Source of the DNA: Planctomycetota bacterium
Lineage (GTDB): Bacteria; Planctomycetota; SZUA-567; H5-PLA8
Direction: 5' to 3'
DNA: 50,630 nucleotides
Assembly (NCBI GenBank): GCA_045863855.1
Contig: BTVV01000037.1
Location: 1 to 50,630 of the forward strand
The notes beneath the pieces are model-generated. The model made no database searches, was not told the DNA's origin, and worked only from the letters and a program-made list of their open reading frames with translations. Position numbers and translations under genes: made by a program. Below, piece after piece: positions 24,401-31,458 of this stretch (position 1 is its first letter; every line of letters starts with the position of its first letter).

Positions 24401-27400
24401 ATGATACGCATCATGGGTTTACAACGAGGCGGGGTCCTGCTGCTGACCTTGACTCTGTGCGGGCTGAGCGCCGAGGCGGCCACCTTTAGGTGGACGGGTA
24501 ACGCGGGTAATACGCTATGGGGGACCCCGGGCAACTGGGACCGCAACAGCGTGCCGGGCGCGGGCGACGACGTACAGGTGCCCGGAAACGCCGTGATTAC
24601 GGTCAACGTGCCGGGCACGGTCCGCTCGTTCTCGGTCTCCCAACAGCGCAGCCTGGTGCTGAAGCTCGACCAGAACTTGACCGTGAGCCAGAACTTCACG
24701 CTGGGCCAGCACGTCAACGCGGTGTTCGAGAGCAATGCGAACCGCACGCTCGACATCGGCGGTAATTTCACGGTCGGACAGCATTCGACCCTGAACCTGA
24801 ACAGCGGGAACGTGCTGATCGGCGGGATCGCCGATTTCGACTCGCATTCGACCTTCAGCATCAACAGCGGTTCGTTCATCGCCGAAGGCGATATCTTGAT
24901 CGACCAGCATGCCAACGTGTACATGAACGGCGGGCTGATCCGCACCGACGAAGATTTTCATATCGACCAGCACGCCAACGTGCATCTGAATGTGGGCGCC
25001 ACGCTTTCGATCGGCGGTGTGCTCAACAAGGACAAGAAGGGAAACCTCTACAACAACGGCGGCACGCTGCCGGTGACCGTGCGCGAACTGCGCGCGTCGC
25101 CCGAAGCCGGCGGCGCGCTGGTGGCATGGGACGCGGCCTCCGAAGAACGCAACCTGGGCTTTCATGTCTGGCGGCGCGAGGCGCCGGAGGCCGCGCCGGG
25201 AGACGAAGCCGGTCCCGTTGCTCCGCGCGCGCCCGGCGGCAAGACCTTCGTCTCGAATGCTTCGGGAAACTGGAACAGTTCGAACACCTGGCGCGATCAG
25301 AACAACCAGCCCGGCGTGCCCGGACCGCTGGACCTCGCGACCGTTCGCAGCAACCATCAGATCACGGTCAACGCGGCAGCCACGGTGGATTTCCTGACGC
25401 TCAATACGAGTGCGGTCCCCGCGCTATCGTTTACAGGAGGCAACGATCTGACGGTGCTGACGCGCCTGGAACTGCAACGCAACAGCGAAGTGCGTTCGGC
25501 CTTCTTCAGCTTTGGGTCGAAGCTCAATCTCGCTCACAACGCGGTATTCGATTTACGCGGGCACGCCTTCACGATCTCCACAAGCGTCCTATTGAGTTCC
25601 ATGCAGGTCGATTTAGGTAACGGCGATTCGGCCAACCAGTCGGCGCATATCGTGAATGCCGGCAACATCACCGTCTCCGGCGCGATCATCGCCTCGGGCC
25701 TGTTCATGCTCGGCTCGCGCAGCGATATCGCTCTGAACAACGGGAGCGTCCTCGCGGTCAATTCGGGCGGCGTCTTTAACGCCATCGCGGGAACCGATTT
25801 CATCACCGACTACGTGCTGCTCCACGGCGCCACCACGGCCGACCGCTACACGGTATCGCTCAACGGCGGCGCGCTGGAATGGGACCATATCAAACTCGAG
25901 AACCTGGGAGCGGCCGGCCTGACGATTACCAATACGGTGGACACGAACCCCGGGCGCGTCTGGTTCGCGAGCGGGACGGCCGGCGGGCGGTACATCACCT
26001 ACAACGAGAGCACCTCTGGCGACAGCTACCGCTTCACGGACGTCTCGTTCTCGAACAGCGGCGTTGCGCAGGCCGTGCGCTTGCCCAACGGTAGCAACGG
26101 GACGTTGATCTTCGACCGGCACGCCAGCGATACGCCGCCCAACCAGAACGTGAATTGGCTGGGCCCGAACGTGAACGGCGTGATCCACCGCGGCAGCGTG
26201 GGCGATTTTCCGCCCATGTCGCACTTCGACGGCACCGGCGGCGTCGTGCAGTGGGGCAACGCGAATACGCTGCCCGTCACGGTCACCGGCCTCGACGCGA
26301 TGCTCGAAGCCGGCGGTGTGGTCGTGACGTGGGACGTGGCGTCGGAAATTCAGAACCTGGGCTTCCACCTGTGGCGCGGTTCGGTCAAGACCTCGAAACA
26401 GGCGGCGCGCGCGGCCGGAACGCAAGGCGGCTGGATCGAGGAACCGCTCGCCGAGACTCCCGCCGAGCTCGAAACGCGGAGCGCGCGTGGGCGCGAACTG
26501 CCCGCTCCGGCCGCGGATTTGGAGACCTCGATGGCGGCGCAGGGCTGGCGGCGGGTGACCGACGCGTTGCTGACGGGACGCCTCTCGCATCCGGCTTCGA
26601 AAACGTACCGCTTCTACGACGCGCCTGAGGCGCCGGGCGTGTACGAATACGCGCTCGAATCGGTGGCACTTGACGGCACGCGCGAACTTTTCCGCTTCGC
26701 GTCGCCGCCGGTGCGGCTGGACCGCTCGGGCGGCGCTCCGGTAACGCTGGCCGGCCTCGATGCCATGCTAGCGCAGGTCGAACGCAGCTTCGTGTCGGCG
26801 CGCGGACGGGACGCGCGGGAGCGCTTCGCCGCGGCCGGTCCGTTACGCTCCGCTCGCGTGGCGGTGCTGCATGACGATCCGGCTTGGTCGCCGGCGCGCT
26901 CCGCCGAAGCCGGCGTGGATTCGGCTCAAGCGGACTTCACCAGTGTGGCCGATGCGAAGAACGTGCATCCCGGCTTCGTCCCGCCGCCGGGCATGCCCAG
27001 CGTGCGCGAAGTCGCGGCGCGGGCCGGCGGCGACGCGGTGCTGGCCGATCTGCCGGCGTACCAAGCTGACTTGCCCGGATTGAAGAGCGCGCGGCCGCCC
27101 GCCGCGGGCTTCGACGCGGCGAAGCTCGTCACCACCGGGCGCGGCGTACTCCTGATCCGGCAGGCCGATCTGCCCGGCGGCTACGCGCTGGCGGGTTCGC
27201 AGTTGTGGTACGAAGGGCGGCCGAGCAAAGCGCTGGCCTACGATGCCGACCGCGATGCATGGGCCGTCTACGCGCCGGGGTATACCGACGATTATACCGA
27301 CCGCGACGCGTACTTCCTGCGCGCGGGCAAGCGCACGGCGGCCGGAAAAGCGCCGGCCGCGAAGAACCTCTTCCGCGACGGGTTGACCGCGTTCACCACC

Positions 27401-29164
27401 GCGCCGGCGCGCGCCGAAGCGCGCTTCGAAGATCTGTATTTCCAGTTCAACCGCAAGCCGCGGATCTTCCGGCCCTACTTCTCGAGCCAGTTGCTCAGCG
27501 CCACCGATACGGCGGGCACGACGCGAAACGTGCAGGTCGCCACGCCCTCGGCCACGGACGATGCCGCTACGCTGCGCGCGATCGTATACAGCCATTCGTT
27601 CGAGGACGCGGTGGACCCCGATCACGAGTTGCAGGTGGTCTTGAACGGTACGCCGCTGGGTCAGGCGCGCTGGGACGGCGGCCAGCGCATGCTCGAACTG
27701 AGCTTCGACGTGCCGGCGGCGCTCCTGCGCGACGCGGCGCCCAACGACGTGGCGCTGACGACCCCGGCGCTGGCCGGCGTGGCTTCGCAGCTCGCGTTTC
27801 TGTACTCGGTGCAGGTGGATTACACGAAGCGGCTGGAAGGCCCGGGCGCGGTGGTGCTGGAATCCGGCCCCGCGGGGCTGTACGAAGTCTCGGACCTGCC
27901 GACGGAGCGCGTCTGGGTCGTCGATGCGCGCAAGCCGCAAGCGGCGAAGCTGGTGGCATGCGAAACGCAAAGCGACGGCGCGGGCGGATTCGTCGCGCGC
28001 TTCAAGGCCGCGCCCGGCGGCGGGCACGGCTACCTGATCGTTCCGTACGGCGCGGAACTGCTCCCGCAAAGCGTGAGCACCGCGCGGATCGAAGCGCTCC
28101 CGCGCGGCATCGGATACCTCGCCACCGGACCCGCGCTCTTCGAGGACGAACTGGCGCCGCTCCTGGCGCAGCGCCAAGCCGAAGGGCTGAACGCGGTCTT
28201 CGTGGACCAACAGCAGCTCTTCGACAGCTACGGCTGCGGACGCTTCGGCCCGGCGGGGATCTACCGTGCGGCGTACGCCGCGAAGCCGCGCTTCCTCTTA
28301 TTGGCCGGCCGGACCACCTACGATTACCGCGGGCGCGTGGCCCCGGCGGGGATCGATCCGCTCTGCCCGACGATCCTGGCGACGAGCAGCACGCTGGCGC
28401 AGATTCCGGGCGATCCCTGGTACGGCGATTTCGGACGCGGACCGCAGGTCGCGGTGGGGCGCTTCGCGGTGAACACCGAAGCGCAGCTCGCGGCAGCGGT
28501 GCAGCGGACGCTCGATCACGCGGGCCTGCCGGGCAGCGGCGCGACGGGGCTTCTGGCGGCCGACCGACTGGACGTGAACGCCGGACACTTCGGCCTGGGC
28601 GCGGACCTGATCGCGGACGGCGCGCCGTTCGTGGATTGGTCGAAAGCGTATCTCGGCGATACGCACGCGGCGGCGGCGGACGTGACGCAGGCGCTGCAGG
28701 ACGCCTCGGAAGACGGTACGAATCTGGTCGTCTTCGTGGGGCACGGCGCGAGCAACCAGTTCGCGATCGAGAACGTGCTGAACGCGGCGAAAGCGGCCAC
28801 GTGGTCGGGCAACTCGGTGTTGCTGTCGGCCACCTGCACGGTCAACTATTTCATGCACGACCTCGCGGTGCTGGACACGATCCCGGAGTTGCTGATGACG
28901 CAGGCCGGCGGCGGAATCGCGGCTTCGCTGGGCTCCAGCGGCTATACGACGCACTCGACGCTGGTGGATTTCAACGCCGCGCTGCTTTCCAATCTGCCGA
29001 AGCATCGCACGTGGGGCGAAGCGCTCCAGGCGGCACAGCAGGCGGCGCGCACGCGAGCGGCTAAACTGGCCCGCGGCGGCGATCCCGAAGCACCCGGCGT
29101 TTCCGATCTCGTCCACGAATTCTGCCTGCTGGGCGACCCGGCGCTCCCCATTTTCGAACCGTAG
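24401..29164 (+). CDS. Large exported C25-family (gingipain-like) cysteine peptidase with duplicated N-terminal modules
   Basis: Signal peptide ending AEA-ATF; two Asn/Gly-rich passenger domains, each followed by TLPVT..W..ASE..NLGFH.WR; C-terminal C25 motifs LLLAG, DPWYGD, VAVGRF, FVGHG (His), SATC (Cys), LLGDPAL. Confidence 0.88.
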   Translation: MIRIMGLQRGGVLLLTLTLCGLSAEAATFRWTGNAGNTLWGTPGNWDRNSVPGAGDDVQVPGNAVITVNVPGTVRSFSVSQQRSLVLKLDQNLTVSQNFTLGQHVNAVFESNANRTLDIGGNFTVGQHSTLNLNSGNVLIGGIADFDSHSTFSINSGSFIAEGDILIDQHANVYMNGGLIRTDEDFHIDQHANVHLNVGATLSIGGVLNKDKKGNLYNNGGTLPVTVRELRASPEAGGALVAWDAASEERNLGFHVWRREAPEAAPGDEAGPVAPRAPGGKTFVSNASGNWNSSNTWRDQNNQPGVPGPLDLATVRSNHQITVNAAATVDFLTLNTSAVPALSFTGGNDLTVLTRLELQRNSEVRSAFFSFGSKLNLAHNAVFDLRGHAFTISTSVLLSSMQVDLGNGDSANQSAHIVNAGNITVSGAIIASGLFMLGSRSDIALNNGSVLAVNSGGVFNAIAGTDFITDYVLLHGATTADRYTVSLNGGALEWDHIKLENLGAAGLTITNTVDTNPGRVWFASGTAGGRYITYNESTSGDSYRFTDVSFSNSGVAQAVRLPNGSNGTLIFDRHASDTPPNQNVNWLGPNVNGVIHRGSVGDFPPMSHFDGTGGVVQWGNANTLPVTVTGLDAMLEAGGVVVTWDVASEIQNLGFHLWRGSVKTSKQAARAAGTQGGWIEEPLAETPAELETRSARGRELPAPAADLETSMAAQGWRRVTDALLTGRLSHPASKTYRFYDAPEAPGVYEYALESVALDGTRELFRFASPPVRLDRSGGAPVTLAGLDAMLAQVERSFVSARGRDARERFAAAGPLRSARVAVLHDDPAWSPARSAEAGVDSAQADFTSVADAKNVHPGFVPPPGMPSVREVAARAGGDAVLADLPAYQADLPGLKSARPPAAGFDAAKLVTTGRGVLLIRQADLPGGYALAGSQLWYEGRPSKALAYDADRDAWAVYAPGYTDDYTDRDAYFLRAGKRTAAGKAPAAKNLFRDGLTAFTTAPARAEARFEDLYFQFNRKPRIFRPYFSSQLLSATDTAGTTRNVQVATPSATDDAATLRAIVYSHSFEDAVDPDHELQVVLNGTPLGQARWDGGQRMLELSFDVPAALLRDAAPNDVALTTPALAGVASQLAFLYSVQVDYTKRLEGPGAVVLESGPAGLYEVSDLPTERVWVVDARKPQAAKLVACETQSDGAGGFVARFKAAPGGGHGYLIVPYGAELLPQSVSTARIEALPRGIGYLATGPALFEDELAPLLAQRQAEGLNAVFVDQQQLFDSYGCGRFGPAGIYRAAYAAKPRFLLLAGRTTYDYRGRVAPAGIDPLCPTILATSSTLAQIPGDPWYGDFGRGPQVAVGRFAVNTEAQLAAAVQRTLDHAGLPGSGATGLLAADRLDVNAGHFGLGADLIADGAPFVDWSKAYLGDTHAAAADVTQALQDASEDGTNLVVFVGHGASNQFAIENVLNAAKAATWSGNSVLLSATCTVNYFMHDLAVLDTIPELLMTQAGGGIAASLGSSGYTTHSTLVDFNAALLSNLPKHRTWGEALQAAQQAARTRAAKLARGGDPEAPGVSDLVHEFCLLGDPALPIFEP

Positions 29165-29233: not shown

Positions 29234-29262
29234 TTGCGCCGCGAGGCGAGCGCGGGCATAAT
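29234..29262 (+). promoter_or_regulatory. Candidate sigma70 promoter for the PqqD-kinase pair
   Basis: TTGCGC-N17-CATAAT, followed by RBS GGAGGT before the ATG at 29283. Confidence 0.55.
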
Positions 29263-29282
29263 GGGGTTTCGGAGGTGCACGC

Positions 29283-29678
29283 ATGCCCGTTTTCAAGCGA
29301 TCGGACAAGGTGGTCTGGGACGAACTCGCAGGAGAGGCGGTGCTCGTGCAGCCCGACCGCGCGGCAACCTTCGTGCTGAATCCCAGCGGGGCCTTCGTCT
29401 GGAAGCGCTGCGACGGTCACACGCCGGTCGACCGGATCGTGGCGGACCTGTCCGCGGGCGGCGCCGAAACGGCGCGCGTGGAGGCCGAGACCGCGGCGTT
29501 CTGCGCGGCGCTCCAGGCCAAAGGCCTGCTGGAAGAAGCGCCCGCCGCACCGGCACGCACGGCGCCGCCGGCGCGCTTCGCCGCGCCGTACGTCGCTCCG
29601 CGCGTGAACCTCGAAGAGCTGGCCGACAAGCCCAACCAGCGCCCCGGCAAGCGAGACATCGGCGGCAGCCGCCCGTAA
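29283..29678 (+). CDS. PqqD-family RiPP recognition element (RRE) protein with a C-terminal YxxP-containing tail
   Basis: VVWDELAGEAVLV...FVLNPSGAFVWKRCDG..PV..IV..L...F...L..KGLL is the PqqD fold, followed by an Ala/Pro linker and YVAPRVNLEEL. Confidence 0.9.
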   Translation: MPVFKRSDKVVWDELAGEAVLVQPDRAATFVLNPSGAFVWKRCDGHTPVDRIVADLSAGGAETARVEAETAAFCAALQAKGLLEEAPAAPARTAPPARFAAPYVAPRVNLEELADKPNQRPGKRDIGGSRP

Positions 29679-29688
29679 CCCGCCGCTC

Positions 29689-30624
29689 ATGCCCGCCACG
29701 CCCCTCCGCGCGCTGCGGCGCGTCGAACTCTACGGCTATCCCCTTACGGTCGAAGGCGCGTACACGCCCCGGCAGTGGACGCTGCTGGCCGGAAAGCGCG
29801 AACCGCGCGGCGGCGCGCCGGCGCTGCTGCACGCCGTTCTTGAAAAGCCGCCGCACGCGCCGCTGCCGAAACCTCAACCGGGCCGGCTGATCGTCGGCGA
29901 CGAGTTCACGCTCGACTGCTCGAACCGCGTGCTGCGCTGCCGCTTGCCGGCTTCCGGATCGTCCGAACGCCGCCGCCTGAACGATGCGCGCGAAAGCCTC
30001 TGCCGCCACGCGCTCTTCGCGCTGGGCCTGCTGGCCGAACGCCTGGGCCCGCGCGCCGTCTCCACACCGGGGATGGGCAGGCGCGTGCTGCTGAATCTGC
30101 ATGCGTCGTCGGTGCTGGGCCGCGGCGGGGCGCTGGTTTTTTGCGGGCGCAGCGGATTCGGCAAGACGACGCTCGCCACGCAACTGCTTTCCGGGGAACC
30201 GCAGATCGAGTACGACCTGACGCAGATTCTGATCGACCTGTCGGGACGCGAGCCGCCGCGGGTGATCCGCGTCGCACCTTACCTGAAGCGAAGCATCGCG
30301 GACGCCGCGCGGGATCTGCCGCGCGCGGCCTCGCGAAAGCGTATGCGCGCATCCGCCCAGGAGCTGGCGCACTCGGCCGCGCCGCCGCTGGCGGGACTCT
30401 TCTGGCTCCAGCAGGCTCCAAGCTGCGCGCTGGAGCCCATGCCGGCCGCCGAGGCGGCGGCGTACTTGCTCCCCCCGCTCCATTTCGCGTCTGAATTGCG
30501 CGCAGTGGGCCGCCGGCTGAGCCTGCTGCGGGCGCTGCTGAAACAGTGCGCTTGCCGGCGGTTTCGATTTCCCAAGAGCAAGGCGAAGGTAGAGCGATAC
30601 TTGAAGGACGCGGGTTATATATAG
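29689..30624 (+). CDS. HPr kinase-related P-loop protein (ScmC/lasso-kinase-like)
   Basis: LHASSV....GALVFCGRSGFGKTT (His plus Walker A), PLAGLFWLQQAP..LEP...AEA..LL; 10 nt after the PqqD gene. Confidence 0.8.
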   Translation: MPATPLRALRRVELYGYPLTVEGAYTPRQWTLLAGKREPRGGAPALLHAVLEKPPHAPLPKPQPGRLIVGDEFTLDCSNRVLRCRLPASGSSERRRLNDARESLCRHALFALGLLAERLGPRAVSTPGMGRRVLLNLHASSVLGRGGALVFCGRSGFGKTTLATQLLSGEPQIEYDLTQILIDLSGREPPRVIRVAPYLKRSIADAARDLPRAASRKRMRASAQELAHSAAPPLAGLFWLQQAPSCALEPMPAAEAAAYLLPPLHFASELRAVGRRLSLLRALLKQCACRRFRFPKSKAKVERYLKDAGYI

Positions 30625-30633
30625 GCGCGGCGA

Positions 30634-31458
30634 TTAGAAGTCGTCGAGGTTCTCGATCGCCCTGTTTTCCCACTGCGGCGTGGAATCGAAGATGCTGCCG
30701 TCCATGGCGAGGTTCTTGATTTCGGGGATGAAGTTTTCGGTATCCGGGTCTTTGACGTGCCAGAAGCAGCGCACCAACGGAAACCAGGAGTCCGGGTAGC
30801 CGTTGGTGATGCTGGTGTTGGTGTGCAAGAACTGGTCGCCGTACTTCTGCTGGTAGAATTTGGTTTCCTGCCACGTGACGCGGCCGGTACTCCCGTCCAC
30901 GTTGGTGTCGATGACATCGCCGTCTTTATTCGGATCGCCCGGGACGCTGGGCGTGAAAAAGCCGCCCGAACCCATGTCGTAGTACTCGACCCAGCCGTTC
31001 CACCAGCCGCAGGTGGCGCTGTTGAATTCGTACATGTAGGAACTGTACGGGTTGTTGGCGGGCAACCCGTTGATGGCAGGGCCTTCGTCGGTCTCGGCGT
31101 ATTGCCCACTCGCCTGAACTCTTGGTGGGTTCGGCTTGCCGCCTTCCCGGCCGCCGCTGGGATCCAGCGGACACTGGTAGAGCCGCGCGTCCTGGCCGTA
31201 ACCTTCGTGGAAGAGCGTCGTGAGCCGCGGCGGAAAGTTGGTCTTGTACGTATCGTTGCTCATGTCGTACTGCAGGATGCCCGAATGATGCTGCTTGAGC
31301 TGGCTCATGCATTGAGTAATGCGCGCATGGCGGCGCGCTTGGGCGAGGACCGGCAGCAAGAGCCCCACCAGCAAACCCAGAATCGAGACCACCACCAGCA
31401 GTTCGGTGAGCGTGAAGCCCGAAGCCCTGCGGCGGCGCTGGTTCAATGGGCCATTCAT
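30634..31458 (-). CDS. Prepilin-type N-terminal cleavage/methylation domain protein (type II secretion pseudopilin, DUF1559-like)
   Basis: G|FTLTELLVVVSILGLLVGLLLPVLAQAR..AR...C.SQLKQ; YQCPLD; terminal MDGS. Confidence 0.9.
   Translation of the reverse strand: MNGPLNQRRRRASGFTLTELLVVVSILGLLVGLLLPVLAQARRHARITQCMSQLKQHHSGILQYDMSNDTYKTNFPPRLTTLFHEGYGQDARLYQCPLDPSGGREGGKPNPPRVQASGQYAETDEGPAINGLPANNPYSSYMYEFNSATCGWWNGWVEYYDMGSGGFFTPSVPGDPNKDGDVIDTNVDGSTGRVTWQETKFYQQKYGDQFLHTNTSITNGYPDSWFPLVRCFWHVKDPDTENFIPEIKNLAMDGSIFDSTPQWENRAIENLDDF

Follow-up and report, generated by a model that had tools for sequence, protein, structure and literature searches.

Linear polyphosphorylated peptides (LPP), encoded by lppAKBSDN clusters in Bacillota, are the closest described relative of the locus studied here (Popov et al. 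2026, PMC13381572). According to that paper, no biological role is known for HprK-phosphorylated RiPPs. As LPP is described there, our locus shares with it a YxxPxV-type leader, a lasso-B1-like RRE with matching pocket residues, an HprK-like kinase and a PF14907-type NTP transferase (here encoded in trans), and a lasso cyclase is absent from both. However, RRE and precursor form one ORF here and are fused in all complete relatives, whereas LPP has a discrete RRE and a separate precursor gene. Our core is nearly invariant and basic, with its Ser near the C-terminus, whereas the Ser of LPP lies at core position 3. Furthermore, neither an SpI peptidase nor an MsbA-like exporter was found at the locus, the DNA comes from a planctomycete, and the gene is linked to giant C25 proteins; the term C25 occurs 0 times in PMC13381572.

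Paeninodin and pseudomycoidin (PsmK, PsmN; PMC6993621) provide a second precedent. In that paper, an HprK-type kinase acts on a Ser at the precursor end, and the nucleotidyltransferase could add hexose to the phosphate. A sequence-only reading of our locus had invoked this paeninodin-type terminal Ser, but the Ser of the fusion tails is third or fourth from the C-terminus. The fusion also lacks the penultimate Thr and the Asp/Glu at core positions 7-9; counted from the putative cleavage site, Leu113 occupies position -2, and core residues 7-9 are P, G and K. Neither a macrolactam cyclase nor a B2 protease was found at the fusion locus, in a genome 94% complete. Genome-wide, PF13471 gave one match, below cut-off, and PF00733 gave three, the best being a full-length AsnB-like gene with no RRE match nearby. 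A lasso product, already thought unlikely in the sequence-only reading, was rejected for want of a cyclase or B2 protease at the locus, of the penultimate Thr and of the core Asp/Glu. The fusion resembles LPP and paeninodin tailoring, yet it belongs to neither family.

A further likeness is to SynChlorMet (ScmC, ScmD, ScmE/F; TIGR04248-04251). Among NCBIfam models, the RRE scores best with ScmD (E 5.4e-10, below cut-off), and the Cys-type relatives described below carry an ScmC-like kinase and rSAM/SPASM. However, all scores are below the cut-offs, the ScmD model covers 84 aa and is tailless, and no radical SAM gene is present at our locus.

PorU is the transpeptidase of PorU-type anchoring. 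The C25 protein of our locus resembles this type IX sortase in its C25 domain, its His-Cys dyad and its PorU-like N-terminal region. In contrast to PorU, it follows a large passenger in the same chain and is present in 2 to 26 copies per genome, its NF033707 score of 87.9 bits is far under the cut-off of 420, and PorV was found in 0 of 5 genomes searched, in which the control matched. Outside Bacteroidota, an acceptor for C25 domains is not known to have been described. Literature searches yielded no paper on C25 with PorU or sortase in planctomycetes or on peptidase C25 with RiPP; among the open-access papers covered, none joined PqqD/RRE, HPr kinase and C25 peptidase. A natural RRE-precursor fusion was likewise not met in titles and abstract beginnings or in passages of PMC7470986 and PMC12710340.

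Layout of the locus

The window, the whole stretch of DNA analysed here, comprises 50,630 nucleotides of a Planctomycetota bacterium (GCA_045863855.1, contig BTVV01000037.1; genome G000 below). A homologue at 56% identity and a locus at 98% identity likewise carry the label Planctomycetota. The fusion gene, the kinase gene downstream and the C25 gene upstream together fit on 6.2 kb. The features are as follows.

24401..29164, + strand: giant C25 protein, ~1,590 aa if translation starts at the likely ATG (24401), in a 1,623-codon ORF
29234..29262, + strand: candidate sigma-70-type promoter, TTGCGC-17-CATAAT, weak -35, below the scan threshold
29271..29276, + strand: Shine-Dalgarno GGAGGT, directly before the fusion ATG
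29283..29678, + strand: RRE-precursor fusion gene, ORF of 131 aa, translated as in the sequence-only reading
29283..29537, + strand: RRE/PqqD domain, residues 1-85, pocket L32, N33, F73, L83 (PF05402, structure matches)
29538..29576, + strand: Ala/Pro linker, residues 86-98, the least conserved part (mean 0.25)
29577..29624, + strand: tethered leader, residues 99-114, with Y103, P106 and V108 (conservation, model strand)
29625..29675, + strand: putative core, 17 residues, basic, Pro/Gly-rich, with Ser129 and a terminal Pro (conservation, pN/pS)
29689..30624, + strand: HPr-kinase-like (PEPCK-fold) P-loop protein, 311 aa (model pLDDT 87, fold matches, motifs)
G000:C85:2562-3257: PF14907 nucleotidyltransferase, stand-alone, in trans

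An ORF with a PqqD domain, an Ala/Pro linker, the motif YVAPRV and a short tail had been read from the sequence, and this layout was borne out. PF05402 spans residues 18-83 of the fusion protein (E 9.7e-14, 51.9 bits against a Pfam cut-off of 23.4). The codon of Tyr103 lies at 29589-29591, that of Pro106 at 29598 and that of Ser129 at 29667-29669. We infer from the sequence that the leader ends at a cleavage site between L113 and A114; counted from there, Ser129 is the sole Ser of the putative core, at position 15 of 17. A signal peptide is absent from the fusion protein. PF05402 matched two other proteins of the genome, one of 533 aa (weakly, at the C-terminus) and one DUF2063 protein, and neither showed a link to the fusion.

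As for expression signals, the gene had been credited with its own candidate promoter and a strong ribosome-binding site. The latter stands as GGAGGT, and the TTG..17..ATAAT arrangement is retained at the equivalent place in two genomes of the same genus (G001 and G002); however, a consensus scan returned 0 sites at the candidate promoter. In RNA runs, contigs from a relative 95-99% alike span the fusion gene in 4 of 4 runs from three studies, but such contigs reveal neither strand nor level and may stem from DNA carry-over, and they give only a hint of transcription.

On the minus strand at 30634-31458 lies a prepilin-type N-methylation gene (PF07963), whose synteny is kept in three genomes of the genus. 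In the RNA runs, very deep contigs of other organisms match the 5′ part of this gene.

Conservation of the core within the fusion family

Fusion relatives were found in 23 of 61 related genomes. The first search with the fusion protein gave 43 places in 21 genomes; alignment searches added G017 and further copies, and a profile search added G060. Every complete flank ORF recovered bears a tail, the exceptions being two contig ends and one broken copy, and the tail is nearly identical in homologues at 56-60% identity. Two types can be distinguished. The R/P type, present in 15 genomes of the window's order including its own, has a basic, Pro/Gly-rich core with a C-terminus that is most often RRRPSPRGNSGPG. 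The Cys type has Cys-rich cores and is represented by nine genes in nine genomes, G018 having both types.

The R/P-type alignment comprises 65 sequences, 31 from loci and 34 tail-bearing matches, and is partly selected because those 34 rows were chosen by eye for a tail. Within it, the mean top-residue share is 0.65 in the core, 0.50 in the RRE, 0.37 in the leader and 0.25 in the linker. Thus, the expectation of a conserved YxxP with a variable tail was not met: Tyr103 is retained in just 26 of the 65 sequences, and conservation peaks in the core. Pro106 occurs in 53 sequences, position 108 is hydrophobic in 63, and a leader-end pattern (hydrophobic 113 followed by G/A/S at 114) occurs in 39. 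Position 129 is S/T in 64 of 65 (Ser in 59, Thr in 5), and Pro131 is present in 62. YxxP falls within the last 45 residues in 26/65 family members vs 17/453 neighbouring proteins; this enrichment and the near-identity in homologues show that the tail is no chance feature.

An unselected test of core conservation is provided by the 11 complete paralogues of G014. Their last 12 codons show a pN of 0.045 against a pS of 0.67, and their RRE regions share 25-75% identity (median 40%), which indicates that the core is under purifying selection as a peptide, with the tethered leader free to drift. A 20-sequence codon table was set aside: its rows had been chosen by a tail pattern that missed 2 of the 22 complete genes through an R-to-K change. 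Free variation of synonymous codons, TCN/AGY switches at the Ser among them, led us to reject an RNA or DNA element as the cause of the tail's conservation.

In a tree of 53 RRE domains, the 31 R/P-type rows lie on one side of a branch with moderate support (91/77) when G012 is left out; branch support in this tree is too weak for ordering events. A phylum-wide search gave matches in 126 of 401 genomes, chiefly discrete PqqD genes in which a stop codon falls within the matched region, and 22 discrete-PqqD loci outside the class were retrieved from it. An ESM Atlas search returned unnamed PqqD clusters only. When the tail profile was run against all six frames of G000, no separate free precursor was found, the fusion gene being the only convincing match (next best E 0.006). 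Two seemingly stand-alone tails in G011 were rejected, as they turned out to be contig-end fragments. The broken paralogue, L048:407-1687 (G014:C83), has its RRE half and a tail-like piece on opposite strands, which suggests that it arose through inversion.

Predicted presentation of the leader by the RRE

The AlphaFold2 model of the fusion protein (42 sequences) has a pLDDT of 90.6 overall and 95 across residues 101-110. Structure prediction had been proposed as a check on the YVAPRV region, which came out ordered, with strand 108-113 added to the RRE and starting at V108, that is, P+2. The core is poorly ordered, the residues after the leader having a pLDDT of 60-73. The best structural matches of the RRE are lasso B1-leader complexes (5v1u, 5v1v and 6jx3; Z 11.4-12.1, rmsd 1.6-2.5). 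With the NisB-NisA-leader chain 4wd9, the alignment reaches residue 116 with 94 residues aligned, against 78-87 for most RRE-only chains; the extra residues aligned in 4wd9 would be the NisA leader.

The LppB-LppA complex has pockets formed by L32, N33, F74 and L83, with a leader strand that begins at Pro+2 (PMC13381572). The corresponding pocket residues of the fusion, L32, N33, F73 and L83, are retained in 65, 57, 60 and 58 of 65 sequences, respectively. The sequence-only reading had compared the leader with YxxPxL. YVAPRV does fit the pattern [Y/W]xxPx[L/V/I/F/A] given in PMC13381572, but the actual motif is YxxPxV. According to the model, the RRE groove very probably holds its own leader in cis, matching the register seen when other RREs bind their leaders. 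The earlier proposal of an RRE-precursor fusion is thus upheld by the conserved leader and core and by the extra strand in the model.

Kinase, nucleotidyltransferase and associated enzymes

The model of the downstream kinase matches PEPCK (Z 11.1) and HPrK (Z 7.5-8.3). No Pfam or NCBIfam family was reached above cut-off, and a PDB sequence search gave nothing significant (best E 0.15). A His, an intact Walker A and the second Asp are present, and E-Y-D replaces the Asp-Asp pair; most relatives of the kinase carry D-D, the first Asp of the pair being Tyr in the window's genome. A PsmK D-D double mutant is inactive (PMC6993621), and the E-Y-D kinase, in which only the second Asp is retained, counts against a kinase step. 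The view that this HPr-kinase-like neighbour is the likely modifier of the near-terminal Ser gains support from its fold, Walker A and motifs.

The kinase occurs in 15 of 61 genomes, essentially in single copy and always together with a fusion (14 of the 15 R/P-type genomes), and none was found in the other 38 genomes, where no fusion was detected. Eight genomes have the kinase gene immediately after the fusion. In the four genomes of genus g10 it stands alone before cmk, with up to 13 or more fusion genes. The PF14907 nucleotidyltransferase, which the sequence-only reading overlooked along with the link to the upstream C25 (PorU-like) gene, is present in 21/23 fusion genomes vs 4/38 others. 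It adjoins a kinase or sits one gene off in G018, G019, G021, G024, G026 and G028, and was undetected in G007. G012 has a fusion and C25, but it alone among the R/P-type genomes showed neither a kinase, with the downstream protein as query, nor a nucleotidyltransferase; its fusion (L043:9560-10177) carries a ~65-aa low-complexity insertion in the RRE.

The Cys-type relatives have a different enzyme set. A radical SAM/SPASM gene lies directly 3′ of five of the nine Cys-type genes (G017, G018, G032, G048 and G060), and the kinases of G021, G024, G026, G028, G032 and G048 have an N-terminal S24/S26-like domain. Neither a radical SAM/SPASM gene nor an S24/S26-kinase fusion was seen at R/P-type loci. 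Judged from these sequences, core chemistry tracks the neighbouring enzyme set, so the tail would behave as a precursor should. Neither a leader peptidase nor a transporter was found at R/P-type loci, nor an MsbA-like exporter among their called neighbours. G000 has seven PF00717 matches away from the locus, and the one closest to the Cys-type domain lies in a prophage-like region.

A prophage-like stretch with a small S24/S26-like gene occupies G000:C46:8000-24000. A separate RiPP-like cluster was noted at L081:8695-13831 (G004:C81), containing an HPr-kinase-like gene, a PRMT-like methyltransferase, a 66-aa lasso-like precursor and a discrete PqqD.

The giant C25 protein upstream

The giant protein begins with a signal-peptide-like N-terminus, as judged by eye, followed by a repetitive passenger, the PorU-like N-terminal region and a C-terminal peptidase C25 domain (PF01364, E 3.4e-39). 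Its catalytic residues are a His (GHG, codon 28742) and a Cys (codon 28835), a dyad that is invariant in 25/25 aligned neighbours. The protein appears to be exported. Its relatives, ~1,100 to >3,700 aa long, have adhesin-like passengers (PATR, laminin G) and a conserved PorU-like region.

A PF01364 match lies ≤1.5 kb upstream on the same strand in 34 of 46 fusion genes, a count that omits tail-only contig-end fragments and discrete PqqD matches. Three more fusion genes are preceded by a contig-end fragment ending like a C25 gene, which gives 37/46. For the R/P type, C25 is upstream of 34 of 38 fusion genes, four having no adjacent C25; in G001, fusion and kinase occur without a C25 neighbour. 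A metagenome scan gave 24 family loci, 11 of which repeat sequences already in the set; 18 have a C25 neighbour, three have no upstream DNA and three lack C25. A C25 gene is present in 23/23 fusion genomes vs 4/38 others, but these genomes are kin, so that the linkage counts overstate independence.

In the other direction, once five weak rows are set aside, a fusion follows 34 of the 94 C25 matches and is missing behind the remaining 60; in G015 the figures are 3/26 and 23/26. Since most C25 matches have no fusion behind, the peptide need not act one-to-one with C25. Among neighbouring genes, RRE distances correlate with C25 distances (Mantel rho 0.79 in G014). This is the outcome expected of cassette duplication, which can explain adjacency without one-to-one function.

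The second C25 protein of G000 (G000:C32:4232-7732) has no fusion behind it and lies downstream of pilin-like genes. The Cys-type fusions L058-L061 (G021, G024, G026 and G028) have no C25 neighbour, and three of them follow prenyltransferase/squalene-cyclase-like alpha-alpha toroid genes.

Discussion

The present study reveals an RRE, a leader and a conserved core fused in one protein. As a whole, the locus is best explained, by a modest balance of probability, as a fused, minimal LPP-like pathway serving giant C25 proteins. The RRE would very probably grip its own leader and present the core. The downstream HPr-kinase-like protein would then phosphorylate Ser129, a step that we consider likely in view of its fold, the gene order and known HprK-type peptide kinases. 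Whether or not the PF14907 nucleotidyltransferase, encoded elsewhere, goes on to decorate the phosphate is an even call; co-occurrence and the pseudomycoidin precedent point to it. Removal of the leader near L113-A114, followed by export, may come next, although we propose it with some hesitation.

Synteny and genome co-occurrence make a functional tie between the fusion and C25 probable. The modified core would likely serve the C25 proteins, most probably as acceptor or ligand of the PorU-like domain. Our preferred role within this tie, though a speculative one, is that of an acceptor to which the C25 domain joins the passenger of its own chain. PorU-type anchoring uses the amine of an amino acid (seryl or glycyl) on a sugar (PMC7468200). 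The peptide pathway could conceivably build the anchor of a self-sorting surface protein, the released N-terminus of the decorated core being the acceptor; this too is tentative. An invariant core with a new N-terminus after a hydrophobic-G/A end would suit such a role. Several observations speak against the pathway as a whole: the kinase and nucleotidyltransferase are undetected in G012 and the latter in G007, and the window's kinase has E-Y-D in place of D-D. Besides, the peptide is made in the cytoplasm, the C25 protein is seemingly exported, and no leader peptidase or exporter was found for the R/P type.

The product could instead be an ordinary LPP-like phosphopeptide RiPP, secreted or intracellular, with C25 merely a co-regulated envelope gene that was co-duplicated. 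Its enzyme set equals that of LPP clusters (HprK kinase, NTP transferase and YxxP leader; PMC13381572), and the 60 of 94 C25 matches without an adjacent fusion, the four R/P-type fusions without an adjacent C25 and the RRE-C25 co-variation predicted by cassette duplication all agree with it. Nevertheless, we regard it as unlikely: LPP cores are highly variable (PMC13381572), whereas fusion cores are nearly invariant among paralogues; the kinase and transferase genes have moved off, whereas the fusion has remained behind C25 genes; and C25 accompanies every fusion genome but few others (23/23 vs 4/38). Another view, quite unlikely in our judgement, is that the protein stays uncut in the cytoplasm as a phospho-switch or chaperone, its kinase-toggled basic tail controlling C25 synthesis or export. 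Such a role would fit a strongly basic, Pro-rich tail, a single kinase serving many paralogues, and the lack of a signal peptide and, at all R/P-type loci, of a leader peptidase or transporter. It accords poorly with the leader-end pattern in 39/65 sequences, with the co-occurring nucleotidyltransferase, and with the radical SAM/SPASM neighbours and S24/S26-kinase fusions of the Cys type, which are typical of peptide maturation.

The sequence-only reading had also offered the tail as a mimic of the leader that blocks the RRE groove in cis; a separate precursor would then have to displace it. The model does position the leader in the groove. However, the residues after it, poorly ordered in the model, are the most conserved, the leader itself drifts among paralogues, and the tail profile reveals no second convincing peptide in G000. 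This alternative is weakened because the post-leader core is the most conserved part, and we consider it very unlikely. A fused precursor is favoured over a mere groove blocker because the core is the most conserved part and the paralogues keep Ser129.

If the fusion is such a precursor, the locus offers a minimal pairing of one 131-aa, putatively self-presenting substrate, one kinase and one C25 protein. What this locus adds is the minimal cysteine-free form, the core that stays invariant over many paralogues (up to 13 or more have it in common) and the layout of one kinase for many cassettes. Both the role of the phosphopeptide and the acceptor of C25 could be tested with two or three genes. 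Should the peptide prove to be the C25 acceptor, it would represent a new mode of surface-protein anchoring and a natural peptide-ligation tool; even if it is not, the fusion is a natural one-chain RRE-substrate design.

C-terminal and passenger domains of the C25 proteins

Several features of the C25 proteins were noted in passing. After a Pro/Thr/Ala-rich spacer, 35 of 50 of them (L029-L056, L127-L141) have G-x-F or G-x-x-F as their last residues, which might act as a signal for export or anchoring; the window's C25 protein does not have this ending. A C-terminal domain of ~150 aa ends seven to nine G000 proteins (contigs C149, C53, C18, C5, C13, C122 and C34; weaker in C35 and C6) and some C25 proteins of relatives (L027:9120-9572, L037, L089, L090, L134 and L138). 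It has no Pfam match, and in the Atlas it comes closest to clusters of unnamed proteins from Planctomycetota (score 0.87); C25 may act on it as a sorting domain. In the window, two passenger domains begin with LPVTV, at 25067 and 26270, and presumably resemble the domain found ahead of the type IX sorting signal in cargo proteins of Bacteroidota.
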